Shown here: one piece after another, positions 264 through 62,687 of the stretch
How the letters are laid out: each line of letters starts with the position of its first letter
Numbering within the stretch: position 1 is the stretch's first letter
DNA from: Mytilus trossulus
Taxonomy: Eukaryota
Length of the DNA: 64,000 nt
NCBI RefSeq assembly: GCF_036588685.1
Contig: NC_086383.1
Coordinates: forward strand, 12,400,001 to 12,464,000
Direction of reading: 5' to 3'
The notes under the pieces: generated by a model
Database searches by the model: none
Told to the model about the DNA's origin: nothing
What the model saw: the letters and a program-made list of their open reading frames with translations, nothing else
Position numbers and translations under genes: made by a program

Positions 264-371
264 CTTCACATTGTTTTCCACTATATCCAGTTGGACAGGT
301 ACAAACAAAACTACTTCCGGTAGGAGTACATTCACCCCCATTCGAACAAGGCGAACTGTTGCATGGTGTGA
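264..371 (-). CDS. EGF exon (last visible in window)
   Basis: 108 nt, ag/gt boundaries, 6 Cys. Confidence 0.8.
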
Positions 372-3300
372 CTATCAAAAAAGAAGACAATTGTTTGAGT
401 ACAATCATTGCATCAATATCCTACAGTATATTGACATAAGAATTGGTACAACCTCGACCTCAATATTCAAATGGGTGATTTAAGCCAGCTTCTTAATATT
501 TTTCATGATCATCAGAAAATCCGTATCGACATTTTTCCAAGTTTGCAGTAATAAAATTTGACGCGTGAATGTAAGAAGTAAGTTTTCATATCCTTATCTA
601 TTTTCCCGTTTTTTTTCATGTTTGATTGAATCATTTTTAAAAGTGTTGTAAATGTAACTTATATTAATATATTAATTTGTACGTGACGGAAGTAACATCT
701 TCCGACGATTGTATTATGCAGACAGGAATGAGACTATTTTATTTTAAATAGCGGTCATATACTTATTTTAACGAAAACAACATTCATTGGGAAAGTAGTC
801 ACACTCTTTTATTTTATTTCTAGGATATCATTCTGTCAAAACTCCTTGTAAAAGTAGAACAGTTTTAGCCGACAAGTAACCCACCTTCACATTGTTTTCC
901 ACTATATCCAGTTGGACAGGTACAAGCAAAACTACTTCCGGTAGGAGTACATTCACCCCCATTCGAACAAGGCGAACTGCTGCATGGTGTGACTATGAAA
1001 AAAGAAAACAATTGTTTCAGTACAAACATGGTATCAATATCCTACTATATATATTGACATAAAAAATGTTACCACCTAGACTTCAATATTGAATTGGTTG
1101 TTTTGAACGAGCTTCCTAAATTAATTTCGTGATCACGTCATAACCTGGAGAAAATCAATACTGACATTAACAAATTTGCAGTAAAAAAACTCATGAATGT
1201 AAGAAGTAAATTTTAATAACCAAATCTATGTCACGCAGTTTCACGTTTGAAATATTTTAATTGTTTTCTTTATTTTAATATCTCAATATTTACATATCTG
1301 CAGTAACTCCTTTCGACAATTCTTATATGAAGACGCAAATAAGACGATTCTGTTGTCATATACCTATTTTTAATGAAATCAAAATTCATTGTTTAAAGTA
1401 GTCATAATGATTCATTTATTTAGAAAAAAGTGTATTTTTGTTCCATCTTTAATTTAAAAACCCGAAAGTCAACCTATATTTTAATTAATCTCACTTTGAC
1501 ATTGTTTTCCACTATATCCATTTGGACAGGAACAAACAAAACTACTACCAGTGGGCTTGCATATTCCCCCATTTACACAAGGCGAGCTGTGGCATGGTGT
1601 AACTAGAAAAAAATAAAATATTATTATTGAAATGCAAATATTTAATCAAATCCTAGGATATATGAGAATCATTGTCTCGGTTCCTTGACTGCTTAACACA
1701 GTCTAGATAGAACTACCTGTTTACAAAATGATTGTAGTAATCGCGCGGCAATTACAAACCGTGCGCAAAAGTACAGAACATATGATAGCATTAGTGTTTT
1801 CGTTGAGTACCATATGAATATCCGATTTGACAAATGTTTTCGTCGTTATAATGCTTTTTTCTCTTGGGGTTGCAATAACCGTTATCGGACACAATAGCTT
1901 TGTTTTTGTCATTTTTGTTGCAATATTACAAATATAAATAGATGTGTACTTTGTAAGTACAGCTGTGTCACAAACCATGTCTCTTTTAGTGAGATGTATA
2001 ATATTCATGAATAGTTTGTTTTCATAACGTCCTAGTTCCCTTATAGGATCTCTATGTATCTTCCCGTAAAGACAAAACTTGAAAATGTTACCATTATACA
2101 TTAACATAAGTAGCGGCCGCCTTAAATTCTGAGGTAAACTCAAAGTTAAGGAAGGATAGCACAGAATATCAGTATATTTTTCAAACTTTTAAAAGTGTAC
2201 AGTTTCTGTTTGTCTTTTTTCATTTTTAGCCTTGGCATTGTCAGTTTGTTTTAGATTTATGAGTTTGATTGTCCCTTTGGTATCTTTCATCCCTCTTTTA
2301 AGTTGTAAAAATAGTTCCTTTGGCTAATTGCATTATCTATATCAAAAGAAATGCATCATATATAGTAACCCACCTTCACATTGTTTTCCACTATATCCAG
2401 TTGGACAGGTACAAGCAAAACTACTTCCGGTAGGAGTACATTCACCCCCATTCGAACAAGGCGAACTGCTGCATGGTGTGACTATGAAAAAAGAAAACAA
2501 TTGTTTCAGTACAAACATGGTATCAATATCCTACTATATATATTGACATAAAAAATGTTACCACCTAGACTTCAATATTGAATTGGTTGTTTTGAACGAG
2601 CTTCCTAAATTAATTTCGTGATCACGTCATAACCTGGAGAAAATCAATACTGACATTAACAAATTTGCAGTAAAAAAACTCATGAATGTAAGAAGTAAAT
2701 TTTAATAACCAAATCTATTTCACGCAGTTTCACGTTTGAAATATTTTAATTTTTTTCTATATTTTAATTTCTCAATATTTACATATCTGCAGTAACTCCT
2801 TTCGACAATTCTTATATGAAGACGCAAATAAGACGATTCTGTTGTCATATACCTATTTTTAATGAAATCAAAATTCATTGGTTAAAGTAGTCATAATGAT
2901 TCATTTATTTAGAAAAAAGTGTATTTTTGTTCCATCTTTAATTTAAAAACCCGAAAGTCAACCTATATTTTAATTAATCTCACTTTGACATTGTTTTCCA
3001 CTATATCCATTTGGACAGGAACAAACAAAACTACTACCAGTGGGCTTGCATATTCCCCCATTTACACAAGGCGAGCTGTGGCATGGTGTAACTAGAAAAA
3101 AATAAAATATTATTATTGAAATGCAAATATTTAATCAAATCCTAGGATATATGAGAATCATTGTCTCGGTTCCTTGACTGCTTAACACAGTCTAGATAGA
3201 ACTACCTGTTTACAAAATGATTGTAGTAATCGCGCGGCAATTACAAACCGTGCGCAAAAGTACAGAACATATGATAGCATTAGTGTTTTCGTTGAGTACC

Positions 3301-6300
3301 ATATGAATATCCGATTTGACAAATGTTTTCGTCGTTATAATGCTTTTTTCTCTTGGGGTTGCAATAACCGTTATCAGACACAATAGCTTTGTTTTTGTCA
3401 TTTTTGTTGCAATATTACAAATATAAATAGATGTGTACTTTGTAAGTACAGCTGTGTCACAAACCATGTCTCTTTTAGTGAGATGTATAATATTCATGAA
3501 TAGTTTGTTTTCATAACGTCCTAGTTCCCTTATAGGATCTCTATGTATCTTCCCGTAAAGACAAAACTTGAAAATGTTACCATTATACATTAACATAAGT
3601 AGCGGCCGCCTTAAATTCTGAGGTAAACTCAAAGTTAAGGAAGGATAGCACAGAATATCAGTATATTTTTCAAACTTTTAAAAGTGTACAGTTTCTGTTT
3701 GTCTTTTTTCATTTTTAGCCTTGGCATTGTCAGTTTGTTTTAGATTTATGAGTTTGATTGTCCCTTTGGTATCTTTCATCCCTCTTTTAAGCTGTAAAAA
3801 TAGTTCCTTTGGCTAATTGCATTATCTATATCAAAAGAAATGCATCATATATAGTAACCCACCTTCACATTGTTTTCCACTATATCCAGTTGGACAGGTA
3901 CAAGCAAAACTACTTCCGGTAGGAGTACATTCACCCCCATTCGAACAAGGAGAACTGCTGCATGGTGTGACTATGAAAAAAGAAAACAATTGTTTCAGTA
4001 CAAACATGGTATCAATATCCTACTATATATATTGACATAAAAAATGTTACCACCTAGACTTCAATATTGAATTGGTTGTTTTGAACGAGCTTCCTAAATT
4101 AATTTCGTGATCACGTCATAACCTGGAGAAAATCAATACTGACATTAACAAATTTGCAGTAAAAAAAACTCATGAATGTAAGAAGTAAGTTTTAATATCC
4201 AAATCTATTTCACGCAGTTTCACGTTTGAAATATTTTAATTGTTTTCTTTATTTTAATATCTCAATATTTACATATCTGCAGTAACTCCTTTCGACAATT
4301 CTTATATGAAGACGCAAATAAGACGATTCTGTTGTCATATACCTATTTTTAATGAAATCAAAATTCATTGTTTAAAGTAGTCATAATGATTCATTTATTT
4401 AGAAAAAAGTGTATTTTTGTTCCATCTTTAATTTAAAAACCCGAAAGTCAACCTATATTTTAATTAATCTCACTTTGACATTGTTTTCCACTATATCCAT
4501 TTGGACAGGAACAAACAAAACTACTACCAGTGGGCTTGCATATTCCCCCATTTACACAAGGCGAGCTGTGGCATGGTGTAACTAGAAAAAAATAAAATAT
4601 TATTATTGAAATGCAAATATTTAATCAAATCCTAGGATATATGAGAATCATTGTCTCGGTTCCTTGACTGCTTAACACAGTCCAGATAGAACTACCTGTT
4701 TACAAAATGATTGTAGTAATCGCGCGGCAATTACAAACCGTGCGCAAAAGTACAGAACATATGATAGCATTAGTGTTTTCGTTGAGTACCATATGAATAT
4801 CCGATTTGACAAATGTTTTCGTCGTTATAATGCTTTTTTCTCTTGGGGTTGCAATAACCGTTATCGGACACAATAGCTTTGTTTTTGTCATTTTTGTTGC
4901 AATATTACAAATATAAATAGATGTGTACTTTGTAAGTACAGCTGTGTCACAAACCATGTCTCTTTTAGTGAGATGTATAATATTCATGAATAGTTTGTTT
5001 TCATAACGTCCTAGTTCCCTTATAGGATCTCTATGTATCTTCCCGTAAAGACAAAACTTGAAAATGTTACCATTATACATTAACATAAGTAGCGGCCGCC
5101 TTAAATTCTGAGGTAAACTCAAAGTTAAGGAAGGATAGCACAGAATATCAGTATATTTTTCAAACTTTTAAAAGTGTACAGTTTCTGTTTGTCTTTTTTC
5201 ATTTTTAGCCTTGGCATTGTCAGTTTGTTTTAGATTTATGAGTTTGATTGTCCCTTTGGTATCTTTCATCCCTCTTTTAAGCTGTAAAAATAGTTCCTTT
5301 GGCTAATTGCATTATCTATATCAAAAGAAATGCATCATATATAGTAACCCACCTTCACATTGTTTTCCACTATATCCAGTTGGACAGGTACAAGCAAAAC
5401 TACTTCCGGTAGGAGTACATTCACCCCCATTCGAACAAGGCGAACTGCTGCATGGTGTGACTATGAAAAAAGAAAACAATTGTTTCAGTACAAACATGGT
5501 ATCAATATCCTACTATATATATTGACATAAAAAATGTTACCACCTAGACTTCAATATTGAATTGGTTGTTTTGAACGAGCTTCCTAAATTAATTTCGTGA
5601 TCACGTCATAACCTGGAGAAAATCAATACTGACATTAGCAAATTTGCAGTAAAAAAACTCATGAATGTAAGAAGTAAATTTTAATAACCAAATCTATTTC
5701 ACGCAGTTTCACGTTTGAAATATTTTAATTGTTTTCTTTATTTTAATATCTCAATATTTACATATCTGCAGTAACTCCTTTCGACAATTCTTATATGAAG
5801 ACGCAAATAAGACGATTCTGTTGTCATATACCTATTTTTAATGAAATCAAAATTCATTGTTTAAAGTAGTCATAATGATTCATTTATTTAGAAAAAAGTG
5901 TATTTTTGTTCCATCTTTAATTTAAAAACCCGAAAGTCAACCTATATTTTAATTAATCTCACTTTGACATTGTTTTCCACTATATCCATTTGGACAGGAA
6001 CAAACAAAACTACTACCAGTGGGCTTGCATGTTCCCCCATTTACACAAGGCGAGCTGTGGCATGGTGTAACTAGAAAAAAATAAAATATTATTATTGAAA
6101 TGCAAATATTTAATCAAATCCTAGGATATATGAGAATCATTGTCTCGGTTCCTTGACTGCTTAACAGTCTAGATAGAACTACTTGTTTGCAAAATGATTG
6201 TAGTAATCGCGCGGCAATTACAAACCGTGCGCAAAAGTACAGAATATATGATAGCATTAGTGTTTTCGTTGAGTACCATATGAATATCCGATTTGACAAA

Positions 6301-9300
6301 TGTTTTCGTCATTATAATGCATTTTTCTCTTGGGGTTGCAATAACCGCTATCGGACACAATAGCTTTGTTTTTGTCATTTTTGTTGCAATATTACAAATA
6401 TAAATAGATGTGTACTTTGTAAATACAGCTGTGTCACAAACCATGTCTCTTTTAGTGAGATATATAATATTCATGGATAGTTTGTTTTCATAACGTCCTG
6501 GTTCCCTTATAGGACCTCTATGTATCTTCCCGTAAAGACAAAACTTGGAAATGTTACTACTATACATTAACATAATTAGTGGCCGCCTTAAATTCTGAGG
6601 TAAACTCAAAGTTAAGGAAGGATAGCACAGAATATCAGTATATTTTTCAAACTTTTAAAATAGTACAGTTTCTGTTTGTCTTTTTTCATTTTTAGCCTTG
6701 GCATTGTCAGTTTGTTTTATATTTATGAGTTTGACTGTCCCTTTGGTATCTTTCATCCCTCTTTTAAGCTGTAAAAATAGTTCCTTTGGCTAATTGCATT
6801 ATCTATATCAAAAGAAATGCATCATATAAAGTAACCCACCGTGACATTGATTTCCACTGTATCCAGTTGGACAAGTACAGGCAAATCTACTTCCGGTAGG
6901 AGTACATTCACCCCCATTCGAACAAGGCGAACTGTTGCATGGTGTGACTATGAAAATAAAACACAATTGTTTGAGTACAATCATTGAATCAATATCCTTC
7001 AATGTTTTGACATAGGAATTGTTGGAACATTCACTTCAATATTCAATTGGTTGCTTTGAACGAGTTTCCTACATTATTGTTTGTGATGACATAACCTAGA
7101 GAAAATCAAAACCGGCATAACCAAGTTTGCAGTTACAAAAAAAACCCGCAGGAATGTAAGAAGTAAATTTTGATATCCTTATCTATTTCACGTTCTTTTC
7201 ACGTTTAATTGAAAAAGTAATAAATCTTATTCAAATAAATTCGGATCTTCCCTCATCTGATAACCAGCATGGTTACGGTATTACTCCTAAAAGTATTACG
7301 AGGAGTGTGAGGTGACACGTCCAGGTATTCAAGCGATTTCCTGTCAGGCTTGCAAGTTCATTCATCGTGTCACTTCTGTAGCTATTAATCAGTTTACACA
7401 GCCGATAACTTATAACTTTCCATTTTGAACTAGCAGATGCATGTATAATATGCATCCGTCTTGCGTGTCCGAAAGTGATATAATACATGAGTCATTATTT
7501 ACTTAACTCATACGCTTGTTTAAAAATAAAATTTTTGGTGTAAAGAATATATTATCTATAAAAATATAGATAATAATACCCCCCCCCCCCCAAAAAAAAA
7601 AAGATTTGAAGAAATGAAAATCTATTTACATATTTTTACCAAGGGTTAATTTCTCGTTGTCAATAGTAAAGTACAGATTGAAACATACCAGAAATATTGA
7701 TTTAAAAAAAATCTACGCACTTGTCGACGATTCGTTATACGCCTGGGTAGAAAGTTACGGAAGAACTATAGCGCAATTTAAAATATATACATGTATACAT
7801 AAGAAAGAAACATGCATTTTGTGAAAATTGGGGTAAAAGTTTTGGTAATAGACTAGTCCACGTATGTCAACAATATGTAATCAACGAATTCGATAGACTT
7901 TTGTATACCAAAAGAAGAAGAAGAAGAAGAAGAAGAAGAAAAGAAACAATTTGATTTAAATGCAGGTCGATATACAACTTGCTTTGGTTCATCGAAGTTA
8001 TGAACATAGTAAAATCACAGATTTATATATCACTTCGATTGTTCTCGAATAAAGGAAGAAATTCGTCATCATCACAATTGTTCCGACATTCATGTAATAA
8101 ATATGCAACTGGACGTACACTAATAATCCCCGAGGGATGTTAATATTTTCCAGGGAAACTATTGAGAATTTTTAAAAGTTTTAAATTAATTTCGGGATTT
8201 ATTTTCTTTCTTGATATTCAATGACAGAAATTCAAAGAATAAACGGCTTGTCCGCTTTAGGGGTATTCTTGCCAGATAAACAGACTTATGATATAATTAA
8301 AAAATAGGAAAAGATGACATTAAATTCGTTGTCTTTTGTTTTTAAACATCTCTGGTCAAATATTTACTTATGTAGTATACATTGTGAGACGAAGATAGTT
8401 TTAATCAGGATGTTCTTGATTATGAATAAATTTGGTTGAAGTTTTTCATATTTGAAAAGAATGTCTTTTCGTAATTTTCGATTCCATTCCAAGAAGATCC
8501 TTACATTACCTGTTAATTCTTTAAAACCTCTTAAGTACAAAAGTATTTTTCTTTATTCGTACATATTATATTTCGCTTCAGTATGGCTTTCAAAAGTCTA
8601 AATGTAAGTGTTCTCGTACATTGTTTTACCTAATAAAGACAATCAAAATGCTTTTGTAAATGTATTTCTAATTTCTAAATTCCCCTTTTTTATGAAACAT
8701 AAATCAAAACCAAGAGGTGTATATCATTTCATTGTGACACATGAAATAAGTTTCCCGTTTTTAAACGAAAATTGTGTATTTCTAAGTAAATTAACTTTTT
8801 TGAATTCAGAATAAATAATAGCACCCAATATAATTAAATAATTCCACGGCGATTTATTTCTATTTTTTTACCAGCTTGAAGATGTATTTTAAATATGTGT
8901 ATTAAATGCTTCCTTAATTTTTTTTTAGTCCACTTATCCAAATAGACAGTCAAACCTTGCAAGGTGTGCCCTGGAGGCGTGGTTAAATACCGAAGTGCAA
9001 ATAACAATTTACCTTTTAACAAGCCATCTACGAATATTGGCACAGAAACATGAATTCACACATCGTATAAATCTAGTCATAGCAGAGATAGTAAAATGTC
9101 AATAAGAGTACACCAACATATTGTCTTTACAATTGTACTTTAATTTGCTCACCTAATCAGTCCGAAAATGCATTAATTAAATTTGAATTTATAAGTTTTT
9201 GTGTTGTCTACAACAATAACTCGAATATATACGTTTAACTTAGAAAATTTATCTCATAAATGTGTACAATTGCACGTCTGTGCGTTTTATCTTCTTATTA

Positions 9301-12300
9301 TAGGATGGTTATTAGATCAAAAATGATAAAGCATAAGTCATCGGCGAGCTTACGATAATGTTAAAATATGATTAAAAACCAAGACTTTTAATGATTGTAT
9401 TTTAAATCCAAGCATGCAAAAAACAGGAGAAAACGTCGCGACTTACAGGAAGTAGTTAATAGTTTTTCATTTATTATCGAATTTCTCCTTTATTACTGCA
9501 CATATAGCGATAAAACTTTGAGAAAATATATATATTATGTCATTATGAACGTATTCAAACCATAAGTAAAAATCGTGAATTTTCCCTTTAAAAGTGTTGT
9601 AAATTAAACTTACTAAAGTATATTAATATCTCAATATATCTCAAGTAATTTCTTCCGAAGACAAGAATGAGACTATAATATTTTAGATAGCAGTCGTATA
9701 CTTATTCAATGAAAACAAAATTCATTTGGTCAAACTATTTTATTTATTTCTAGGATATCATTCTGTCAAAACTCCTAGTAAAGTGGTACAGTTTTAGCCG
9801 ACAAAGTAACCCACCTTCACATTGTTTTCCACTATATCCAGTTGGACAGGTACAAGCAAAACTACTTCCGGTAGGAGTACATTCACCCCCATTCGAACAT
9901 GGCGAACTGTTGCATGGTGTGACTACGAAAATAAAAGACAAATGTTTGAGTACAATCATTGCCTCATTATCCTACAGTATATTGACATAGGAATAATTAC
10001 AACCGTGACCTCAAGATTCAATTAATTGATTTAAGCCAGCTTCTTAATATTTTTCATTATCATGAAAAAATCAATACCGACATGACCAAGTTTGCAATAA
10101 CAAAAAAAACACGTGAATGTAAGAAGTAAATTTTAATGTCCCTATCTATTTTCACGTTCTTTTTATGTTTGAATGAATTATTTTAAAAATTTTGTAAATG
10201 AAATTGATATGAATATATCAATATTTACATAACGGAAGAAACTCCTTCCGACGATTGCTGTATGCAGACAAGAATGATACTATGATACTTCAGATAGCAG
10301 TCTTATACTTATTCAATGAAAACAAAATTCATTTGGTCAAACTATTTTATTTATTTCTAGGATATCATTCTGTCAAAACTCCTAGTAAAAGTGGTACAGT
10401 TTTAGCCGACAAAGTAACCCACCTTCACATTGTTTTCCACTATATCCAGTTGGACAGGTACAAGCAAAACTACTTCCGGTAGGAGTACATTCACCCTCAT
10501 TCGAACATGGCGAACTGTTGCATGGTGTGACTACGAAAATAAAAGACAAATGTTTGAGTACAATCATTGCCTCATTATCCTACAGTATATTGACATAAGA
10601 ATAATTACAACCGTGACCTCAAGATTCAATTAATTGATTTAAGCCAGCTTCTTAATATTTTTCATGATCATGAAAAAATCAATACCGACATGACCAAGTT
10701 TGCAATAACAAAAAAAAAAACACGTGAATGTAAGAAGTAAATTTTAATGTCCCTATCTATTTTCAAGTTCTTTTTATGTTTGAATGAATTATTTTAAAAA
10801 TGTTGTAAATGAAATTGATATGAATATATCAATATTTACATACAGGAAGAAACTCCTTCCGACGATTGTTGTATGCAGACAAGAATGATACTATGATATT
10901 TCAGATAGCAGTCTTATACTTTTTTAATGAAAACAAAATTCATTCGGTCAAACTATTTCATTGATTTCTAGGATATCATTCTGTCAAAACTCCTAGTAAA
11001 AGTGGTACAGTTTTAGCCGAAAAAGAAGTTCCTATTGGTAATTGCATTGTCTGTACTAAATAAATGCAGGCTATAAAGTAACCCACTTTGGCATTGTTTT
11101 CCACTGTATCCAGAAGGACAGGTACAAACAAAACTACTACCAGCTGGTGTACATTCTCCCCAATTCGAACAAGGCGAACTGTTGCAAGGTGTGACTATGA
11201 AAATAAAAGACAATTGTTTGAGTATAATCATTGTATCAATTCATTGACATAAGAATTGTTACAACCGTCAATATTGACTTCAATATTAAAATGGGTGATT
11301 TGAACCAGCTTCCTACATTATTATTCGTGATTACGACACAACCGGGAGAAATTCAGTACCGACATAACCAAGTTTGCAGTAACAAAAAAAAAAACGATGT
11401 GAATGTAAGAAGTATATTTGAATATCTCTATATATTTTCACGTTCTTTTCGTGTTTGATTGAGTTATTTTAAAGGTCTTTCAGTATTAATATCTCAATAT
11501 TTACGTATCGGCAGTTACTCCTTTCGACGATTCTTATATGAAGACGCGAATATGACGATTCTATTTTAAATAGCTGTCTTTTACCTATTATTAATGAAAA
11601 CAAAATTCATTGGTTAAAGTAGTCATGATAGTTACATGAATTAATTTCTTTAGAAAAAGGGTATTTACGTTCAATCTTTAATCTAAAAACCCGAAAGTTA
11701 ACCTATATATTAATCAATCACACTTTCACATTGTTTTCCACTATATCCATTTGGACAGGAACAAACAAAACTACTACCAGTCGGCGTGCAGGCTCCCCAT
11801 TTACACAAAGCGAGCTGTGTCATGGTGTTCCAAGAAGAAGTAAAATTTATAATTGGCGTGCAAATATTAAATCAAATCCTAGGATATATGGGAATATTGT
11901 CTCGGTTCCATGACTGATTACCACAGTCTAGATAGAACTACTTGTTTTAGAAATAATTGCAGTAATCGCGCGGCAATTACAAACCCTGCTTAAAAGTACA
12001 TAATCTATGGTAGCATTAGTGTTTCCGTTGAGTATAATATGTACTTCAGATTTGACAAATATTTTCGTCTTTATAATGCATTTTTCTCTTGGCGTGGCAA
12101 GTACCGCTATCGGACACAATAGATATGTTTTTGTCATTTTTATTGCAATAATACAAATGTAAATAGATGTACACTTTGTAAATACAGCAGTTTCACAAAC
12201 CATTCCTCTTTTAGAGAGATAAATAATATTCATGAATAGTTTGTTTTCATAACGTCCTGGATCCCACTTATGATATGCATGTATCTTCCCATAAAGACAA

Positions 12301-15300
12301 AACTTGGAAATTTTGCCAGTATACATTAACATTATTAGCGGCTGCCTTCAATTATAAGGTAAATTCTAAACTAGGGAAGGGATAGTACAGAATTTTAGTA
12401 TATGTTTAAACTTTTAGAAGTTGGAGGCAGATAAACGGGAATTTTCAACACAGTTGTATATATCTTGTGCAAGAAAATTGGTACCGTTATTTTATTACTA
12501 CCACTGGGTTGATGCCTCTGCTGGGGGACTATTAGTCCCCGAGGGTATCACCAGCCCAGTAGCCAGGACTTCGGTACTGGCATGAAAATACGGATTTTTT
12601 GTGTTATTAAAATTTGCTGTTACAAAATATAAGAAATCATTATAAATTAAGGAATGTATCTCCCTCATGCAAAGCTCTGACTCCTTTCACGGATTTGGCC
12701 ATACTTTTTGGACCTTTTGGATTATACCTCTTCATCTTTTATATAAGCTTTGGATTTCAAATATTTTGGCTACGAGCACAACTGAAGAGACATGTATTGT
12801 CGAAATACGCACCTGGTGCAAGAAATATTTTTTATGATCATGAGAAAATCTGTACCGACATTTTTCCAAGTTTGCAGTAACAGAAATGACGCGTGAATAT
12901 AAGAAGTAAATTTTAACATCCTCATCTATTTTCTCATCTAACGTTCTTCTCATGTTTAATTTAATTATTCTAAAAGTGTTGTTCATGTTACGTATATTAA
13001 TATATCAATATTTGCGTCCGACGATCGTAGTATGCAAACAAGAATGAGACTATTATATTTTAAATAGTAGACTATATTTATTTTAATAAAAACAAAATTC
13101 ATTGGGTAAAGTAGCCATACTCTTTTATTTATTTCTAGAATGTAATTCTGTCACAACTCCTAGTAAAGATGGGACAGTTTTAGCAGAAAAAGGAGTTCCT
13201 TTGGTTAATTGCATTGTCTATAGTAAATGAAATGCATCATATAAAGAAACCCACCATGACATTGATTTCCACTGTATCCAGTTGGACAGGAACAAACAAA
13301 ACTACTACCAGCCGGTGCACATTCACCCCCATTCGAACAAGGCGAACTTTTGCATGGTGTGACTACGAAAATAAAAGACAACATTTAGAGTACAATCATA
13401 GTATCAGTATCCTATAATATATCTTTTCTTGTGGTTTTTGTTTTCTACAAATGAATACCTTCTTTTTCGGCAAAACAATATCATGACTTAGAATACCGGC
13501 ATTTGATTTTTTTGGGGGGATATCTATACAGGTTATGTTTTTTTTTATATAAAACGAGGATGTTTCTGTTGAGTTTTTGAAATCGAATTGCATAAAACAT
13601 ACCCTTCCTTTGAACCATGTACTTTATTTTCGAAAGACTGTTTTATTTTGTGTCAAAAGCACCCCATTTCTTATTAGAATGAATATTCCGTGTGTACTCA
13701 ATTTGCTTCAACGAATACTTTATGCCGGTCAACTATATTTTGCTTTAAATCCTTGATAAAATGTTGAACATGCATAAAAAATGTGTTTCGCAAACTTCTA
13801 GCTCATTGTTGATTTTGATTCTATTGGGTTTTTTTCCGAACCAAGTATCAAAAATGTTGGACATATTGTAAAAAATAAACCAAATCATAAGTTTGTCTAA
13901 GGTTTAGTATGTTGGTACTGTTTGTAACCCTGAACTTTGCCCAATTGATTCCAATATCCCATAGTGTGTTTCTTTTTCTATTGGGAATAATCTATTCAAA
14001 TTCAATAAAATTTTCCTAATGCTTTAAAACATGTATCCAGAAAGCAAAATGTTTGCACCCAGACACCCAGACACCAAACATTCATACTGTAAACATAGTT
14101 GGAATTCGTTGCTTATCGCCTAACAAATGTTACAACCTTCACATCTGGATCCATTGTATCCATCACTGCAAGCACAGATAGGTAATTTCCCAAGTTCAGT
14201 GCAAGTTCCATTGTAGAAGCAAGGTTCTTCAGAACACGGCGTTTCTAAAAGAAAACATATATGTTATCACGAGACAATCTAATGATTTTATTAAGCTAAA
14301 TCCTTCTCTTTAGGTGTTTCTCAGACCCTTGCATAATCGGAAGATGGAAATTCTGTTTTTAATCATTTTTTTACAAAATTTTGGTCTCATATCAACAGGT
14401 ATAGATTCAGTGTTAAGACTTCAGTTTTTATGGACAACATACAAAAAACAATACATAGAATAAAGCAAACAATAAATTCACATAGTTAAATATGTGGCTG
14501 CTGTTTTTCCAACTCTTGATCAAGTCAATAACAAAATTGCTAAATAACGAAAAGAATGCAACACTAACAGAATAAAGAAGAACAATCAATGAACAACAAA
14601 AAGACAAATAAATAAGAATCATGAATCCCGAAAAAAACAGAAGCTACGTGTGAGGGAATAAATTACATGTTTCTTGTAAGATACTCGCCGTGAAAACAGT
14701 TTGATATGAAAACAAGCTTTTGGTTTTGAAATTTCCAACATTTGACTGACAAAAAACTCAGCAAATATTTAAGAGACAATTTTTCATTACAAAATTTGTT
14801 TATTTCTCTCATAGTTGTTACTAATATTGTACAAAATTCAATTAAAAAGATCAAATTGTGTTGTCCCAAGAACACTTTTAAAATGTTTAAATCCTTGAAA
14901 AAGCTCCAAATTATCTCCCTTTAGTGAAAAAAACGTCATGTTTTGGGCACTAAACTGAAATATCTATTTTAAGTCATCGGTGACCTTTATTTTTGATTTT
15001 AAAAAAAGCTGTGCTCAAATTAAACTTTTGTAAAATTCAAGCGATATCTGTAATTGAGTTCTTTTTTTTTTCGATATTACATTTTTTCTTTTATTAGTTC
15101 AACAGAAAAAAAGAACCGAAACAAAAATGCATAATTCTTTTGAAGGCAAAATATGAACTTAAATTACGGTGACCCCATATTTTAAAAAAAATTTTTTTTT
15201 AGAATCAGACATGTCAGATAAAGTTTATTTATAAAAAAATCCTATATTTGAACAAACAAAAAAGATTTATACCCGCGATCCCACTTTAAGCAACAGGATA

Positions 15301-16988
15301 CACTAGACCTGACAAAGAAATGATTGTAAAGAAAACTACATTTTTTCTTCCTGCTTCTTTTTTTGTTTTTTGCTGGGGAAGTCCTATATTTCGTAAAGAT
15401 TCTTGATGTAACACGATGTATATTTGTTCTGCAGAGCCAATGTAACAATGCAGCTTTTACTATATTGTTACACTGGCTACAACAATAACCATTTACGTGA
15501 CAATGATAATTTTAAGTGTTCATTGAAAACGATATGATTTAAACGGTAGAGATGTTGTCGTAAACAAGTATTTCATTCAAGGTTAGAACATGATTTGGCC
15601 ATCATATACACGTTTCATTCTCTTCTTCCAATCTCATTTTTTTTACTCAAATAGAGAATAACAGAATAAACCTAGCTGCAATGCATCCTTAAATAAAGTC
15701 AATCTTTAGCTGCTATACTGGGGAATACATCTCTCCAAGCAATCTTTTTATTTAAAGGCAACAGTAGTATACTCTGTTCAAACTCATAAATCCATGGACA
15801 AAAAAAAAATCGGGGTAACAAACTAATACCGAGGGAAACGCATTAAATATAAGAGGAGAACAACGACATAACACCGAAACCCAACACACACAGAAACGGA
15901 CCAAGCATCAGACAAAATCCCACGAGAATAACAAATATAACATCTTAACATCTTTATCAACGATGGTCTTGTGTCAGTTTACTTACCTCATAATTGGTAG
16001 GTGTGTGTTCGACATAAGCCGAGGTCGTGATAACCAAATGTAAGAAAAGTGGAGGACTGCTTTTATCCCAAGTATGTGTCATTTAAGATTTATAAACAAA
16101 GAATGGTAAGATTGGAATATTGTATCCGAGAGACACACTTTCCTGTCGCTATTACATGGTGAACGATAACATCAAAGAGTAAAAGGGTAAATACAAAAAA
16201 GTGAGTCATTATAGATTATACAATCTAGTGAATTAATTTTAAGTAGACGTGTAGATTTTGTTTGTATCTAAAATTTTATTGAAGACTGTCTTTCTAGTTT
16301 TAGTTACGGTACGGTACGGTACAGAAATTTAGGCAAATAACTTTATTTCAAGTGCAAACTCTTATACTTTCATCTAGAAACTGTTGAAATCTTAATTCTA
16401 TTCTTTAAAACAGAGGATGAAATAGGTATGCATGTCATATATGAGCGGTAAACAAATATGTTATCAAAATTGATAAATACCATTGTTTTTCAGCAGCAGA
16501 AACATAGTTGTTCCAGCTATAACACCAACCAAAAGAAATCCAAATATGAAACAAGCCAAATGTTTTCCTCGCCGACTTTTGACAGTTATTTGGTTATAAC
16601 AAATGTTGTTCAAATGTGGTAAAGAGCAAGTAGTAGGAATCACTGCTAAATCATCTATACTCTCGTATATGTCAGAGTTACAAGAAGTTCGGGTTTGTAT
16701 TTCGCTATAATATACATCTTGTTTAACCTCTGCTGTGTTATTATCCAAAATAGTAATTTTTTCAGAAGTTTGAATGTGCTCCTTTGTACCATCTCTTTTT
16801 TCAATTGCTCTACTGGTCGTGTTTTTAACAATAATATCTGATTGTTGATTGTTTTCTAAGGTATCATAACTGCTCCTCGATATTATTAAGTCCGCTGGCA
16901 ATAAAGGTTCATATGTTTTGTTCTCATGAAAAGTTTGTTGTCGTGAACAAGTATTTCCATCAAAGTTCGAACATGATTTGGCCATCAT
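264..16988 (-). CDS. Type II membrane receptor, copy 1 (Tyr-motif tail, TM, >=15 EGF repeats; 3' end beyond left edge, C-type lectin presumed)
   Basis: Exon 1 16988-16481 ends at a phase-1 GT donor. It is followed by 108-nt AG..GT phase 1-1 EGF exons at 14137-14244, 13255-13362, 11087-11194, 10423-10530, 9815-9922, 6840-6947, 5963-6070, 5353-5460, 4474-4581, 3863-3970, 2984-3091, 2374-2481, 1495-1602, 885-992 and 264-371. Exon 1 and first EGF are clearly paralogous to copy 2. Confidence 0.85.
885..6947 (-). repeat. ~1.49-kb tandem array (about 4 units), each with two EGF exons (types A and B) and a Penelope-like 3' tail fragment
   Basis: Type A exons start at 885, 2374, 3863, 5353 and 6840 (periods 1489, 1489, 1490, 1487). 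Type B exons start at 1495, 2984, 4474 and 5963. The introns are nearly identical too. Confidence 0.92.
6840..6947 (-). CDS. EGF exon
   Basis: 108 nt, ag/gt boundaries, 6 Cys. Confidence 0.8.
7214..9586. mobile_element. ~2.4-kb unclassified insertion in an EGF intron
   Basis: The usual ~0.5-kb intron breaks after ...gtttaattgaa and resumes at tttaaaagtgttgtaaat near 9587. Contains an (AAG)n tract at 7912-7943; no convincing ORF. Confidence 0.45.
9815..9922 (-). CDS. EGF exon
   Basis: [35 protein letters not shown], ag/gt boundaries. Confidence 0.8.
10423..10530 (-). CDS. EGF exon
   Basis: 108 nt, ag/gt; 608-bp tandem duplicate of the 9815 exon. Confidence 0.8.
11087..11194 (-). CDS. EGF exon
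   Basis: [35 protein letters not shown], ag/gt boundaries. Confidence 0.8.
11724..11830 (-). pseudogene. Dead EGF exon (pseudo-exon)
   Basis: Homologous to the 1495-type exon, but the acceptor is changed AG->TG, the first Cys codon is TGA instead of TGC, and a 1-nt deletion leaves 107 nt. Confidence 0.8.
12467..12826 (+). mobile_element. Non-LTR retrozyme monomer, subfamily B (~349 nt), with degenerate type I hammerhead at 12776-12819
   Basis: Terminal redundancy gtgcaagaaa at 12467 and 12816. Ribozyme reads CTGAAGA-GACA tgtat TGTC-GAAA; stem III and the cleavage triplet are mutated. Confidence 0.75.
13255..13362 (-). CDS. EGF exon
   Basis: 108 nt, ag/gt boundaries, 6-Cys EGF. Confidence 0.8.
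14137..14244 (-). CDS. Copy 1 first EGF exon ([36 protein letters not shown])
   Basis: 108 nt, ttttag/gt boundaries, 6 Cys; counterpart of 40565-40672. Confidence 0.85.
15530..15640 (-). pseudogene. Fragmentary duplicate of the 5' part of receptor exon 1, inside intron 1
   Basis: gaacatgatttggccatcatatacacg...tcttccaatctca matches 16968-17016. Confidence 0.65.
16481..16988 (-). CDS. Copy 1 exon 1: cytoplasmic tail (YEPL, YDTL, YSEI, YESI) plus signal-anchor TM
   Basis: ATG at 16988 with an in-frame stop upstream; the track's start at 16994 is GTG. Basic RRGKH precedes hydrophobic [23 protein letters not shown]. Donor G|gtattt is phase 1. Confidence 0.85.
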
Positions 16989-17665
16989 ATGCACGTTTTA
17001 TTCTCTTCCAATCTCAAATATATTTTTTTAATCAAATAACATGTAAACTGACACTCAGGATTTAACATGTAGTTAAGTAGTTTTGTCTTAAATGGGAAAT
17101 TTATAGAAATTACATTGTTCAATACAAATATAACAACAACATTTTCTTATTGTTACATAATGAAAATCTATAGTGTAACAATATCACACATGTATGTCTT
17201 AGACGCAGTAAGTTATATACAATTCTTTTACACGCACATGTATTAGGTATGTTACACCCATATTAACATAAAATATCAAAACATCAACGTCAGATAAAGC
17301 CGTTTTCACAATGATCTAAACTCGGTGAGGTGAAAGTGTACTTAACCCCTAAAACATAACTCTAATACATTTCTATTGTAAAAAATAAATGTTAACATTT
17401 CATTCAAATCATTTTTTGACTACATGTAGTTGATGAAGTCATTTTACCGGCATACAAGTAGATAGTATGACGTTGGGTTTTATTATAAATATTCAATGAC
17501 GTTTCATATATTGAATTAAGGTTATCATAATCATATTGTTATCGATACAATTATTTAGTTTTATATTAAGTTGAAAATGAAAATGGGGAATATGTCAAAG
17601 AGACAACAACCCGATAAATATATATGACAAAACCTGAAACATTGCCCATTTAAAATCATGATTAA

Positions 17666-19360: not shown

Positions 19361-19817
19361 TTCTAATATAGTCCATTCATACACTCGGGGACTAATAATG
19401 TACATTAAAAAAATGATTTGTTTTCGGAATTTATGTTCACAGTTTGACCAATCTGGACGGGGTGATTTTTAGGAGAACTTTCGAGAAAGGATTTTACCAT
19501 CAATATTTGTCTAATGTGTCCTCGTGTAAACTTGTCTCAGATATGCTAGCATATTGCTTTCTCACATTTATACACTTGTATAATAAGACTCTCGAACAAT
19601 TAAACGTATTTAAAGTATCAAATTATGTTTATTTATCAATGTATCTGAAATGTATGGTATTTGTGTTTCATCACTGAATTCTCTTTAAAATTATGTTCAA
19701 TATTTTATATTAACCATTATTACATAGTATTATCCAGTAAAATCTGGTAAAACTCGAGTTCTCCCAGTACTCAATTCTGTGCTGGGCAATACTCATAAAA
19801 CTCATAAAACCTCTATC

Positions 19818-20180
19818 AAAACTCTCATATATGTCAGAGTAACAAGAAGTCCATATTTTCATTCCGATATAATAATAATCTTGTTCCAATTTCGTTTCGT
19901 TTGGTTATTGTCCAAACTAGTAAATCTTTCAAAAGTTTGATTATGTTCCTTTGAACAATGCCTTTGTTCTATTCTTCCCCTGGTCGTGTTTTAAAAGTAT
20001 TGTAAGATTTTTTAACGGTTTGCAAGATATCATAATTGTTTTTCGATTTTACCAAGTCCTCTGGTAGTACAAGTTCATACCTTTGGTTTTCATAGAAAAT
20101 TGGTTTTGGTGAGCAAGTCTTTCCATCAAGATGAACAAGTTTTGTCCATCAAGGTTAGAACATGATTTGGCAATCATATA
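19818..20180 (-). pseudogene. Third, truncated and frameshifted copy of receptor exon 1
   Basis: MIAKSCSNLDG start and YDIL/IYES motifs are recognisable; an internal duplication shifts the frame; no TM segment follows. Confidence 0.75.
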
Positions 20181-20902
20181 CACTTTTTTCTATACAAATT
20201 TCAAATCCATATTTGTTCTATCAATAAACGGTTGATACGTCAAACTACATTTCCACAAACAGACATTATAAAATCGACGTGCAGCGGTTTTCCTTCAGAG
20301 AGGAAATTTCATTTTCCATGATTTACTGTATAATACAAATATAATACTAAAATTTCCTTATTGTTACACAATGAAAATCTGAAGTGTCTCAATATCTATA
20401 TAAAATATATAGATGAAAGGATAACAGAGCAGATTGTCAAATAAAGGCAACTGAAGTATACCGCTGTTCAAAACTCGTAAATCTGTGGACAAAAAAACAA
20501 AATTGGGGTAATAAACTATAACTGAGGGAAACGCATTAAATTTAAGAAGAGAACAACGACACATCATTAAAATGTAACACATACAGAAACGAACTAAGCA
20601 TTAGACAAAATCAAATGAGCATAACAAATATACCATCAAAACCAAATACATGAATTTGGGATAGAAAAGTACCGTGACACGTCTTTTAGTAATATGAATT
20701 CACACTCAAATATCAGAAGACGAAAAAACGACACAACGGAAATACAACGTTAAAATGTTACACACACAGCAACGAACTACGATATAACAATGGCCATTTT
20801 CCATTTCAAACCGAGAAAATATTGTCAGCTGAGGCGAGCCAAGGTTGACAAAGGTTTTTGATGTGTACCAATCTCCATCATCCTCTGGGCTATTTCTCAT
20901 TC

Positions 20903-23030: not shown

Positions 23031-24605
23031 TTGAAAAGAAACTCGTATGAAATGGGTACGTATAACATAGTAAAACTCATTAAAAATACCAGGCTTCTTA
23101 AAACACAGAATAAGGTGGCCTTAGCCCTCAATTGGGTGACAGTCACATAGTTTTATCTTATTGACAAAAATATGTCAGAAACACCAAGACTTAATAAGCA
23201 AAAAATTGCAAAATTTGGGTACAGCTAACCATTTTTGTTTTATAAAAGTGCTATAAATAAAGTTAGAGAAGATACCATGACGACATTTTAAACACAAATT
23301 TCGAATGGAAAATGACAACAATACGTCAAAAAGAAGGAAAGACAATAAGATCAAAAAAATATCTCTTCATAGAAAATTTTAAAAAGTCAAAACGAACCGT
23401 ATCAATAAAACCAGAATTATCTTAGGTTCTTTGGAAGGGTATTACAATTTTTTGAAGACATTAAAAAATATAATCAGGTTAGACTGTCCCTTTTAACTTT
23501 CTCCAAATAATTTTAAAGAAATCTGCATTCATAACTATCATGTGATTGCTAAGGTAGCTCTTATTGGTTTATCTTTTGTCTAGAAGTAAAAAGTTGGATA
23601 AGAGTGGCACAATCTTTAACTAGTGTTAAACATAATATGTATCGTTTGGATAAACTGATCGATATCAAAGCACACAGAAAGTAACAAATATTCCTTCCGT
23701 CCAGTATCTACAGTAAAAATAATTCAAACGGAAAGTCCTTAAACTCAATAGCTTAATCAGATAAGACGAATGGAAAGAATGTCATATTTGTGATTTGAAA
23801 CAAGCATTTCCTTATGTCAAAAATTGTGAGTTAAAGCTGGGTTTATGGCTAGCTAAACCTCTCACTTGTAAAATAGCATTATTTTGGCAACAATGTATAA
23901 GAAACACAAAAATACAATGTACATAATATGTAAAAACGAAAAAATTGAAGAACAGCATTCTACATTGTTTATAATCTTTATCACTATAAACACAAGCAAC
24001 AATGAAAAATAGTATGGCATGTTCAATCTGTAAACACAGCAAATACGCAAAAATGAAAGACGAACATACGAAAAATGATCAACGTGAAAGCACAACAACA
24101 CTATGGCGAGATGGTTAAATACCGAGCCACGCCAAAAGATTATTACCACAAATAGACTTAAAGTAGAACTGTTATATCAAACTTAACTCGTTGTCTCTTC
24201 TTGTGTTGCTACATAACTCAAATCAATCTGAAAATAAACAATTAACACTGAAATAAGTGTATATCAATTGTGAACTGTTTGTGCAGTCAGATAATTGAAA
24301 CATTTTTCGAAATCTACTTTGAATATGTGCATTAAAAGAGCATGCTTTGTTTAATTACTAGCTTTTTGTTGAGTAATATCACCATAAGTCTTTATTGAAT
24401 TTGCAATTTTCCAATAATTGTTTAGAATTTATCTTTGTTTTAATAAAAAGAAATTCATGACATCTGAAGCGTTTTATCCTGTCAAGCACTTCAGACAAAA
24501 CTTCCCATTTGATTGCATATAAGATTAAAGCTATCACTGGAATGATGAACAATCTTTACGAATCATTTTACGAATGGATAGCAACTGTAAGGTACAGGCA
24601 TCTTC

Positions 24606-24859
24606 TTACGTAGAAAAGAATAAAGATTTAGAATATACTAACGGTCTTTCGCATATGAAGCGATAATCAAATGAACATTTGTCATCATTCCATTCATTAT
24701 CTAACTCGTCATCAATGGTCAGACAGTTTTCGTTTCCATCTTGATTATTTGGTTCGTGTACAGTACGTGTATGCCAATCAGTTACTGTAAACCTTTGTCC
24801 ACTAGTTGTCCATAACCACACACCTTCATTTGCCTGATCTGATCCACCTAGCCAAAAAG
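24606..24859 (-). CDS. C-type lectin domain exon 3 (terminal)
   Basis: FWLGGSD...EPN...ENC...WNDDKC...FICE; polypyrimidine-cag acceptor at 24860. Confidence 0.9.
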
Positions 24860-27800
24860 CTGAAAAAAATGAATAGTTAGTAATCAAAAGTACCAGGATT
24901 ATAATTGATAAACAACGTGTTATTCAAGAAAAAACTTTTTATTAAAAGTCATATACAACATATCCAAATTAAACTGCACGCCTCAAATACGTCAAACACC
25001 ATTATTTTCCAAAAGTATACACATTGAAGAGATTCAACATGGTCAAAAGTGATATATGTCAGGGGATTTTTAAAATTGCTGTTAGTGATTTTCCTCATTT
25101 TCCACATTTCATTCTGGTTGACCTACTTTGAAGAACATATTATTTTGAATTTATTTGTAATTTGTATGTACATCATATCTTAAATATTGTCAAATGAGTG
25201 TTGAAGAAAACTAAGAATCAGTCAATTTAAACTTAAATCCACCACTAGGCTTAAATGTAGGTCAAATATTTTTTTATCTTTTTAACATATTTTCAGTCAG
25301 AAATAAGTATGACATATGATCAGCATAAACACCAATACTGCAACCTGATTTCGATTCAAATAACGCTTAAGATTTCAATCAATTATCAATCACTCGAAAT
25401 TGTTTGAAAAATAGATCGAAACTAATGTAACTTGTTTATAAAATTGAGACTAAATATTTACTGTGAGTCTAAATATACCATGTGATATTAAGATGAGATT
25501 GAGTCTTCGAAATAAGTAGTATTTGATGATAATTGATCTGTTTGAAAAACAATTCTGATGTTTTGAAATCTCACTGACCATCGGAAACAAAAAAGATTTG
25601 TATTTTGTTGGGCAGGGATGTTAGAATGTAGAGTCCCATGGTCAGTGAGTTTTCACACGATTGATCGTTCTCTGTATTGTTTCTATAATATTATGTTCCA
25701 CATATTGTAAGTAGAATTTAGAGAATAAAAATAGAAACGTTTGTTTTTATATGGGCTGAGGCTACGTAGAAAGTGTGAGCTAACTTTCTTTGACCCGGCT
25801 ATGTTTTTACACTGGCGGTTGCGATTGATGGTATCTATATAATTTGTATGAGTCTGTATGATTAATGCGACGTTTGTTACAAAGTTGGAAAGGACGTGTT
25901 ATAAGTACATTCTAGTTGTTTGTGTTAGCTTTCACTTCCTCTCCCTCCTTCTAGTAGTAGTTTTGTACGCTTGATACTTATGTAATTATATAACATGTTG
26001 ACATTGATACATATGTTTGATCTTTATTGGATTTTTTTATACTTTCATTATATAAAATGTATTCGATCTTTCGCACAACCTCGTTTGTTGTTTAATTTAG
26101 CTAGTTTAGAAAGTATTTATTTTAGTACGAATGAAATGAGGCACATGTAGAAAATAACATACTTTTGGTAGATCTACTTGATAAATTTATTTATTTCCAT
26201 GTAGATTCATGTTTCAATTTATTTATCAAAGTTGCTCAACTCACACCATTATACGATCGCAAACTAACAGTTCAAAATTAGGTGCCCAAAAAGACCAATA
26301 TCGGCATTTTTTTTGTTTCCAGAGTATAACTTGTGGAACGGTGAATGGATTTCTCTCTAATTTTGTAATAAATAAATATCTAAAAACTGCAATTTTCCAA
26401 TGGTAGGTACATACTTTTTCCATATCTATTGGCGTTTGTCCTAAGAAATGTCATCTCACTTGTTGTTGTTACTTCTGCAAGCATACTACTACGCTGTTGA
26501 CAATAAGACTGGAAAGTAAAATTGGTATAAATTTAAACCGCGATAATGGTTAATAACTGTTTAATTCATTGCATTCAGTAGCAAAAAATAAACCTGGTTT
26601 TTACAGGGGGAAAAATGATAATAACATTTGCCTCGTTTAATGATTTCTTGATTGACAAAATATTTGTTACGTTCGGAGGACGTGTTTTTCAACAGACTGT
26701 CGGCATTCCAATGGGCAAAAAACTGTGCCCCTTTAATTGGCGACTAGTTTCTTTATTATTATGAGGCTGACTCCATGCAAGCACTTCTTAGGAAGAAAGA
26801 TAAGAAGTTAGCAATATCCTGTAACTCTATTTTCCTCTATATAGATGATGTTCTTTCACTAAACAATTCAAAATTTGATGACTATGTGGAACGCATCTAC
26901 TAGGATACGAGAGATACAGTTAATTCGGCTTCATATCTTGACTTACATCTAGGAATTGACAATGAGGGTCGGTTGAAAACAAAACTTTACGACAAAAGGG
27001 ATGAGTTCAGCTTCCCAACTGTGAACTTTCCATTTCTAGGTAGCAACATTCAAGCAGTAAATGCATACAGGGTATATATCTTCCAAATGATACGATATTC
27101 CCGTGCTTGCATTTCCTATTATGATTTTCTTGATAGAGGGTTGCTACTCAAAAGGATGCTATTAAACCAAGAGTTCGAAATGGTAAAGTTTAAATCATCC
27201 CTTCGTATATTTTACGTACGCCATCACGAGTTGGTTGACCGTTATGGAATAAGCGTTTCACAAATGATATCGGATATGTTCCTTACGTCGTAACTACAAT
27301 CCTCTTCCCTTTCATGAAGGTGACCTACTGAATTAGACTATTTACCGGATTTGTAATCACATAAGCAACACGACGGCTGCCACATGTTGAGCAGGATCTG
27401 CTTACGCTTCCGGAGCACCTGAGATCACCCCTAGTTTTTGGTGGGGTTCGTGTTGTTTATTCTTTAGTTTTCCATTTTGTGTCATGTGTACTATTGTTTT
27501 TCTGTTTGTCTTTTTCATTTTTAGCCATGGCGTTGTCAGTTTGTTTTAGATTTATGAGTTTGACTGTCCCTTTGGTATCTTTCGTCCTTCTTTTAATGAC
27601 GTTTCTTTTCATCGAATCAACATTTTGAAGATTTGCATCGTCCTTCCATCTTTTTATAAAGATATGGACCTACCATTAAAAAGTGTCAAATATAGCTGAG
27701 AAAAATTCAGGGTGTTCATAAACACACGAAGACTGCAGTTTACTGCGTTTGTACACCACACTTCGGCTGAAGGGATTCTAAGCAAAGCTATTAGCCTGCT

Positions 27801-44453: not shown

Positions 44454-44884
44454 ATACACGTATTATTCTCTTCCAATCTAAACTCTAACGTTTTTAATCA
44501 ATAAACATTTGATGTATATAACTATATTTCTTCAAACTATATTAAACACTCGGAAATTCACAAGTATTTTTCTCTTGAGACCGGAAATTTCATTCATTTC
44601 CCAAGATTTAGTATGATTAAAACAAATTTGTAATTCAATATGTAGCAATAAGTAAAAATTATCATTATATACTTGTATATTTAAATAATAATAAAATTTT
44701 CCTTTTGTTGCATAATGAAAGGCTTTTAAAGTGTATTTTATGCATTTGTCAAACAAGTAAGAGGTTTGAAATAGGAAAATTCAAAAAGCAAGGTCCCTAT
44801 AATCAAGTGGCAAAATTAAAAGCTCAACCACATAAAGAAAATAGATAACTGTCACATTCCTGACTATGTACAGGCATTTTCTTA

Positions 44885-45700
44885 TGTAGGAAATGGTGGA
44901 TTTAACCTGGTTTTATAGCTAGCCGAGGTTGGCAATGTATTTTTATGGTTACCAATCTGTTTTATCATCCTCCTCGCTATGTGTTATTTTACTTATTGTA
45001 ATGATTGTTCCATCAAGAGAGCTTGTGCCGTTCACCTTGGGTATCACCAGCCCAGTAGTCAGCACTTCGGAATATCATTTATATATAATTTTTGTAAATT
45101 TACTGTTTGCAAAAGTATGAATTATTCGAAATACTGAGGATTTTTTTACTCAAAGAGTCGATTCACAAAGCTGACCTCCGAGGAAAATTCAAAGCGGACA
45201 GTCCCTAATCAAATGGCAAAATCAAATGATAAATCACATCAAACGAATGGACAATACATGTCATATTCATAACTTGATAGGGCACTTTCAAATGTAGGAA
45301 ATCGTGGATTTAACCTGGTTTTATAGCTAGCCGAGGTTTGCAATGTATTTTTATGGTTACCAATCTGTTCTATCATCCTCCTCGCTATGTGTTATTTTAC
45401 TAATTGTAATGATTGTTCCATCAAGAGAGCTTGTGCCGTTCACCTTGGGTATCACCAGCCCAGTAGTCAGCACTTCGGAATATCATTTATATATAATTTT
45501 TGTAAATTTACTGTTTGCAAAAGTATGAATTATTCGAAATACTGAGGATTTTTTTACTCAAAGAGTCGATTCACAAAGCTGACCTCCGAGGAAAATTCAA
45601 AGCGGACAGTCCCTAATCAAATGGCAAAATCAAATGATAAATCACATCAAACGAATGGACAATAAATGTCATATTCATGACTTGGTAGGGCACTTTCAAA
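44885..45700. repeat. 408-bp tandem duplication bounded by SINE-like repeat copies
   Basis: atgtatttttatggttacc occurs at 44935 and 45343; units are near-identical. Confidence 0.85.
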
Positions 45701-45763
45701 TGTAGAAAATGGTGAATTGAATCTGGTTTTATAGTGCAGTATGACAGTCTGATTCAAGTCGCA

Positions 45764-53048: not shown

Positions 53049-53212
53049 TTTATAACACACTTTGACCGTTATACTTCCTTACCGAGGTCAATTATAAGCT
53101 ATTATAATAAACAAAACAATGTGATTACTGTAATAAATCTTGCGATCACAATATTTGCGCTTTGTTTTAGAGTAAATAATATTTGTCTTAATAGACAATT
53201 AATGAGTCACAA

Positions 53213-62589: not shown

Positions 62590-62687
62590 TATCAAAATAA
62601 ACTTTGACCGTTAATATACTTCCTTGTGTGCGTGTATTTATAGTCATTGACTTGGTGTATTTACCTTGTTGCAAAAAGTAGATTGGA

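Follow-up and report, generated by a model that had tools for sequence, protein, structure and literature searches.

Can the stalk of an immune receptor be lengthened and shortened by exon duplication, so that animals differ in how far the receptor reaches? This question is raised by a 64-kb window of the Mytilus trossulus genome (the whole stretch of DNA that was analysed, GC content 32%), which contains two paralogues, gene A and gene B, both on the (-) strand. Gene A starts at 16988 (-) and continues past the left window edge, and its C-terminal end lies outside the window. We favour, with some confidence, the reading of gene A as the gene for a predicted type II mussel receptor with two pairs of the immunoreceptor tyrosine-based activation motif (ITAM) consensus, a transmembrane helix, at least 15 epidermal growth factor (EGF) exons, and a likely lectin head, the spacer of which likely changes by unequal crossover. 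The features of gene A are listed below. X and Y denote two EGF exon lineages, which the tree and intron typing showed to be common to genes A and B.

16481-16988 (-): first coding exon, encoding the cytoplasmic tail, a basic patch and one transmembrane helix, with a phase-1 donor
14137-14244 (-): first EGF exon (EGF1), a distinct type, 98/108 nt identical to gene B exon 40565
13255-13362 (-): EGF exon, X-like
11723-11829 (-): dead Y-type EGF exon, within the older two-exon unit copy 11011-12421
11087-11194 (-): EGF exon
9815-10530 (-): two X-type EGF exons (9815-9922 and 10423-10530), a recent 0.61-kb one-exon duplication
6840-6947 (-): EGF exon, X-like, bordering the 1.49-kb array
885-6839 (-): four 1.49-kb units, U1 (885-2373), U2 (2374-3862), U3 (3863-5352) and U4 (5353-6839); every unit holds an X exon (885, 2374, 3863, 5353) and a Y exon (1495, 2984, 4474, 5963)
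264-371 (-): last EGF exon in the window

Gene A showed 16 EGF exon slots, of which 15 were intact and one was dead, and gene B showed four EGF exons. An earlier sequence-only reading had counted at least 15 symmetric EGF exons against 4 in the neighbouring gene, and all of its coordinates were confirmed. Its statement that every EGF exon is 108 nt long and of phase 1-1 held for the 15 intact exons, but it had overlooked the dead slot. The intact exons have AG/GT ends, pyrimidine tracts and canonical splice sites, and each encodes six cysteines. In genes A and B together, 19 of 19 intact EGF exons were 108 nt long and of phase 1-1, the class 1-1 symmetric module. The tail exon joined to the 15 EGF exons of gene A gave 709 codons without a stop.

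In the dead slot (11723-11829), TG stands in place of the AG acceptor, a TGA interrupts the frame and 1 nt is deleted. If the slot were included, the reading frame would stop at about codon 250. Two contigs (11127-11757 and 11752-12143) of the public DNA run X1 span this exon with 0 differences from the window, and the lesions are therefore not base-calling errors. The last EGF of the M. edulis gene model P0099 is of the Y type in a shifted frame, with the shift at about the same G-rich spot as in the dead exon. The frame shift common to both sequences may be a shared lesion or a recurrent slip.

Consensus sites for O-glucose and O-GlcNAc were present in 14 of the 15 gene A modules. The only Y-exon change between U4 (5963-6070) and U1-U3 (1495, 2984, 4474) is Thr to Ile before the third cysteine. 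Through this change the three expanded copies lack an O-fucose consensus site.

The hydropathy analysis showed that the transmembrane helix of gene A lies at about residues 148-166. It is the sole hydrophobic helix and is preceded by 4-5 K/R, and no N-terminal hydrophobic segment or signal peptide was found by hydropathy. Hydropathy and the positive-inside pattern predict that the gene A product is of type II with its N-terminus inside. The same two features match the topology of the DC-SIGN/DC-SIGNR type (N-terminus inside, single transmembrane helix, no signal peptide).

The tail carries two ITAM-consensus pairs, Y26-x11-Y41 and Y94-x10-Y108, which the sequence-only reading had missed beside the type II anchor. 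The consensus, YxxI/L-x6-12-YxxI/L, is as given for Draper in the consulted part of 10.1101/198986. Five sequences (A, B, P0002, P0003 and P0009) had two such pairs and four (P0006, P0007, P0012 and P0016) had one, which makes 9 of the 11 sequences scanned (the P numbers are database proteins). The remaining two were P0008, which starts within the tail, and P0099, the N-terminus of which is unrelated. When A and B were each shuffled 20,000 times, two pairs arose 3 times for either of them, and all four tail tyrosines were invariant in a four-sequence alignment. Judged from the letters, the predicted tails of both genes carry cytoplasmic YxxL/I activation motifs as two YxxI/L-x10-11-YxxI/L pairs.

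A degenerate third copy of the tail exon (19815-20224 (-), 70%) and a fragment (15553-15653 (-), 84%) flank the first exon of gene A, which indicates that the tail exon itself has been duplicated. In the M. edulis model P0014, residues of about 290-506 form a tandem repeat of about 69 residues that includes the first tyrosine pair of the tail and follows the lectin. This may reflect the fusion of a neighbouring gene whose tail has expanded.

The two-exon unit of about 1.49 kb, also described by the sequence-only reading, was present in four copies (1489, 1489, 1490 and 1487 nt) that are 6-28 substitutions apart. U1-U3 differ from each other by 6-9 substitutions (99.4-99.6% identical) and from the edge unit U4 by 25-28. 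The differences among U1-U3 are mosaic, and divergence is concentrated in U4. Edge divergence together with mosaics is the expected trace of unequal crossover with conversion. Tandem Repeats Finder is blind to periods >500.

The near-identity of U1-U3, with no spanning read seen, could also arise if the assembly had stacked haplotypes or read errors in tandem. We consider this very improbable. The four units are distinct, and their 37 variable columns contain only 3 gaps, the rest being substitutions. Read depth also argues for a real array. Four of 24 public runs (X1, X2, X17 and X23) were compared with the stretch 5345-17100, which covers U4 and leaves U1-U3 and exon 264 outside, so that for U1-U3 the X1 evidence comes from the U4 region, in its letters and its depth. 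Five flank contigs of X1 were identical to the window at a depth of 19.6-22.6, and two contigs of the U4 region had depths of 100.9 and 95.2. Both contigs have the length of the U1-U4 majority path and differ from U4 as often as it does (by 1 substitution, and by 18 substitutions with 2 gaps). Their depth was 4.86 and 4.58 times that of the flank, against 3.53 and 3.34 times expected from the window structure alone. An artefact of this kind would predict less unit depth, not more. X1 therefore has at least as many units as the window, and probably one or two more, which speaks for a real array and not an over-assembly.

The DNA run X2 gave a different picture. Its unit contigs had depths of 25.1, 45 and 29.8, compared with 25.5-48.9 for six flank contigs (0.7-1.3 times), and it shares identical stretches of 705 and 490 nt with the window. 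This is what roughly one unit of mixed type for each flank copy would give. By this indirect measure, the unit number is about 5-6 in one animal and about 1 in another, and the copy number of the 1.49-kb unit likely differs between animals. The sequence-only reading had proposed that the stalk changes rapidly and may vary between individuals or isoforms, which would alter the reach of the lectin head. Recent tandem duplication and the different unit numbers in two animals support it in part, but X1 and X2 bear different organism labels, and the difference may therefore be between species.

Older events were also recognised. Another copy of the X-Y unit at 11011-12421 is 81% identical to the 1.49-kb unit, and its Y exon is the dead one. 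A one-exon unit of about 0.61 kb had been proposed for two pairs. The 9815/10423 pair is indeed recent (exon 107/108, upstream intron 195/197, about 99%), but the 264/885 pair is older, with introns only 82-87% alike. Three duplication ages were thus observed: the X/Y split is the oldest, the 11011-12421 copy and the one-exon copies followed, and the 9815/10423 pair and U1-U4 are the youngest. The duplication mechanism itself is familiar from textbooks, with symmetric exons and a neck variation like that of CLEC4M.

The pooled ratio of nonsynonymous to synonymous substitution rates (dN/dS) was 0.28 (45 non-independent pairs, 10 exon types), and the EGF exons of gene A are much better conserved than the introns. 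The X-type exons 264, 885, 9815 and 10423 are 97-98% identical, and their flanking introns are about 75-92% alike. About 5 synonymous changes would be expected in these exons and 1 was seen (P about 0.04, a rough value), which hints at exon-limited gene conversion among them.

The C-terminal carbohydrate domain with the EPN motif is present in gene B, which is complete in the window with 462 codons to the stop. Its features are as follows.

43910-44453 (-): tail and transmembrane exon with two ITAM-consensus pairs, 57% identical to that of gene A
37870-40672 (-): four 108-nt EGF exons (40565, 39004, 38524 and 37870)
37244-37335 (-): C-type lectin exon 1
26415-26508 (-): C-type lectin exon 2
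24643-24859 (-): C-type lectin exon 3, with EPN and WND motifs (Lectin_C, E 1e-10)
24183-24227 (-): terminal exon with the last residues and the stop (model of 462 aa)

The tail was matched by 12 proteins among 1.84 billion representatives. All 7 named matches of the tail profile search were Mytilus, and the tail searches gave no named non-Mytilus protein. These relatives are automatic gene models. The tails of P0002-P0005 and P0008 are 52-55% identical to that of gene A, and the transmembrane helix and EGF types are held in common. P0009 is 86% identical to the gene A tail exon and continues into the same first EGF. The names of these six proteins are automatic only (hypothetical, Notch-like, Delta-like). 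The Pfam EGF counts in the tail-sharing relatives were 4, 4, 6, 6 (partial) and 6. Neither gene A nor gene B contains an exon that corresponds to the extra first EGF of P0002-P0005.

An EPN lectin is carried by 6 of 9 EGF-bearing relatives, including P0003-P0005 and P0008. By analogy with these six and with gene B, gene A likely has a C-terminal C-type lectin head outside the window. The stalk of gene A might instead end in another module or in nothing, as in a decaying duplicate. The same tail and helix are found on other ectodomains: EGF-lectin in P0003-P0005, TSP1-EGF-lectin in P0008, two thyroglobulin type-1 domains in P0006, and TSP1 with an unassigned domain in P0007 and P0012. P0002, P0009 and P0017 end at an EGF, and degenerate tail copies lie near gene A. 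We consider a headless gene A quite unlikely, because its 709 codons are open, gene B has the lectin, and the three relatives with an EGF at their end, including one that is labelled partial, stand against six with the lectin. P0006 and P0008 possibly come from one cluster.

X17, a shallow run that is only guessed to be RNA, gave two contigs with 0 differences from the gene A tail exon at a depth of about 5. The raw RNA run X23 (about 6% read, other organism label) showed no depth on the tail or EGF exons and is uninformative. Through alternative splicing or constitutive skipping, the protein stalk could be of lower and more variable length than expected from the DNA. Skipping of the dead slot is required, and two M. 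edulis database models of a relative, entered as isoform X1 and isoform X2, differ by exactly two whole EGFs. Run X17 gave depth on the tail exon and on one X exon and none on the Y exon of U4, but it is shallow and its RNA nature is only a guess. Canonical splice sites and pyrimidine tracts at all 15 exons argue that they are used, and we regard partial exon use as possible but rather unlikely.

Returning to a receptor with a long EGF stalk of changing length, several points tell against it. The lectin exons of gene A are not within the window, and signalling and binding by its product are predicted by analogy. No family protein with more than 6 EGFs was found in the database. The EGF-region search for long relatives gave 106 proteins, of which 7 were Mytilus family members, none with more than 6 EGFs; the remaining matches were SNED1, Crumbs, Jagged and similar proteins at 35-51% identity. 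Between genes A and B, the dN/dS of EGF1 was 1.06. Run X17 had a depth of 8 on the 9815 exon and zero over 5345-6128. No gene A splice joint was found among the 15 joints listed of 214, and most of those listed were transposon fragments. Contig depth is no copy number, and the flanks of X2 vary twofold. At 15 diagnostic sites, X2 had only the U4 letter at 8 and, wholly or partly, the U1-U3 letter at 7, and its unit is therefore of mixed type. X1 may be the source sample of the window, and the surplus in its unit depth could stem from copies located to the left of the window or elsewhere. The gene A EGF exons begin with TPC and lack the acidic residues of the calcium-binding consensus. Without this consensus the stalk need not be a rigid rod, and its extension is plausible, not assured.

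The nearest known arrangement is that of DC-SIGNR/CLEC4M, which also has an N-terminal tail, a transmembrane helix, a variable-length spacer and a C-terminal carbohydrate domain. The analogy, drawn already by the sequence-only reading, holds for topology and variable spacer length and fails for the neck. The consulted part of PMC3261175 describes the neck as a 23-aa repeat that forms a tetramer, with 4-9 repeats in people. The gene A spacer has no such 23-aa neck; it consists of 36-aa EGF modules, each on a 108-nt exon duplicated with its introns. The ITAM-consensus pairs in the tail are a further difference.

Selectins are type I proteins with an N-terminal lectin, one EGF and CCP repeats. 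The order here is tail, transmembrane helix, EGF modules and lectin, and the Pfam scans gave no CCP match. CD97 and EMR2 (EGF-TM7) are adhesion G protein-coupled receptors in which EGF exons are skipped in frame. The points of likeness to selectins and these receptors are a lectin on a repeat stalk of differing length and EGF exons that are skipped in frame. Notch and Delta have DSL, LNR or ankyrin domains and calcium-binding EGFs; none of those domains was found in the Pfam scans of the relatives, and the EGF exons here lack the acidic calcium-binding residues. Draper, MEGF10 and Eater, the last with a repeat stalk, are type I proteins with an N-terminal EGF ectodomain and no C-type lectin. 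In gene A the transmembrane helix precedes the EGFs, and homology of its tail to these proteins was not found. Drosophila Draper (CED-1/MEGF10 family) is alike in its long EGF-type ectodomain and its ITAM, through which it signals to Shark (10.1101/198986, consulted part).

Oyster CgCLec-HTM and CgCLec-TM1 are likewise bivalve transmembrane C-type lectins with a tyrosine motif. They bind lipopolysaccharide and bacteria and signal via a hemITAM to Syk (PMC13027682, consulted part). The same part describes them by a carbohydrate-recognition domain plus a hemITAM with EGF unmentioned, in contrast to the two full ITAM-consensus pairs and the EGF stalk here. The term EGF is absent (0 occurrences) from the bivalve C-type lectin survey PMC10140915 (main text and one supplement) and from the main text of PMC7653742. 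No literature description of this receptor family was found in a search that did not cover figures, subscription papers and bioRxiv supplements, where prior mention is possible. It is apparently an undescribed mussel receptor family with full ITAM-consensus tails.

We propose that unequal crossover between near-identical exon-plus-intron units would lengthen or shorten the EGF spacer. Because every module is of phase 1-1, the gain, loss or death of a module would keep the frame, and selection would keep the live modules folded. By analogy with oyster CLec-HTM/CLec-TM1 and Draper, glycan binding by the lectin head would cluster the receptor. A Src-family kinase would then phosphorylate the tail, and a Syk/Shark-type kinase would be recruited. 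At about 2.5-3 nm per EGF, the stalk, if extended, would measure some 10-12 nm with 4 EGFs and some 40-45 nm with 15. The height at which this predicted immune lectin receptor stands above the cell would thus differ between animals with different unit numbers. Stalk length would trade reach through mucus or glycocalyx against close contact for ITAM triggering. A longer stalk could extend the reach and yet signal less readily, because a contact height >10 nm impairs ITAM-driven phagocytosis by macrophages (10.1101/250373, consulted part).

The array and its copy variation may also be real and yet represent tolerated drift, with stalk length having no functional effect. We regard this as a serious possibility and lean away from it only slightly. 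Length changes would be harmless because the exons are symmetric. One module is dead without apparent cost, and U1-U3 are too young for a signal of selection. Structural variation is abundant in mussel genomes (PMC7653742). The CLEC4M neck, a variable number tandem repeat, is argued to be neutral in the consulted part of PMC3261175, its effect on binding being controversial. Against drift stand 15 of 16 intact modules, the pooled dN/dS of 0.28, and exons kept far better than introns. Intact modules and dN/dS reflect selection on the modules and not on their number, and drift is thus compatible with most of the data. If length is neutral, the locus is still a clean case of symmetric-exon expansion, of an ordinary kind, visible at three ages.

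If the receptor does vary in length as we favour, its alleles would form a natural series in which to ask whether receptor height sets the ITAM trigger threshold, a question for which engineered spacers are usually used. Intragenic module number would be immune variation that counts of gene presence and absence would miss. A broader idea, which we consider doubtful, is that Mytilus has a modular immune-receptor kit, in which a double-ITAM tail exon is plugged via phase-1 introns into swappable ectodomains. Height would then be a heritable, fast-mutating dial, which each crossover moves by two EGFs and which adjusts the activation threshold through phosphatase exclusion. If true, mussels would diversify how far and how easily a lectin fires, and not only its binding target.

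Other elements were found around gene B. A long terminal repeat (LTR) retrotransposon with a Gypsy-like domain order (28856-34942) lies in the gene B intron between lectin exons 1 and 2. Its 603-nt LTRs differ from each other at 1 base, and it has one 4.7-kb open frame (29531-34252, +). The insertion is likely very recent. A two-copy 408-nt tandem repeat (92%) was found at 44773-45734, just upstream of the first coding exon of gene B. Three tandem intronless TRIM-like genes, 72-74% alike in DNA, are located at 51227-53078, 55990-57842 and 60646-62610 (-). By eye, they show a RING, a B-box, a coiled coil and a beta-propeller-like end. One of them is open for 655 codons, and two are frameshifted.

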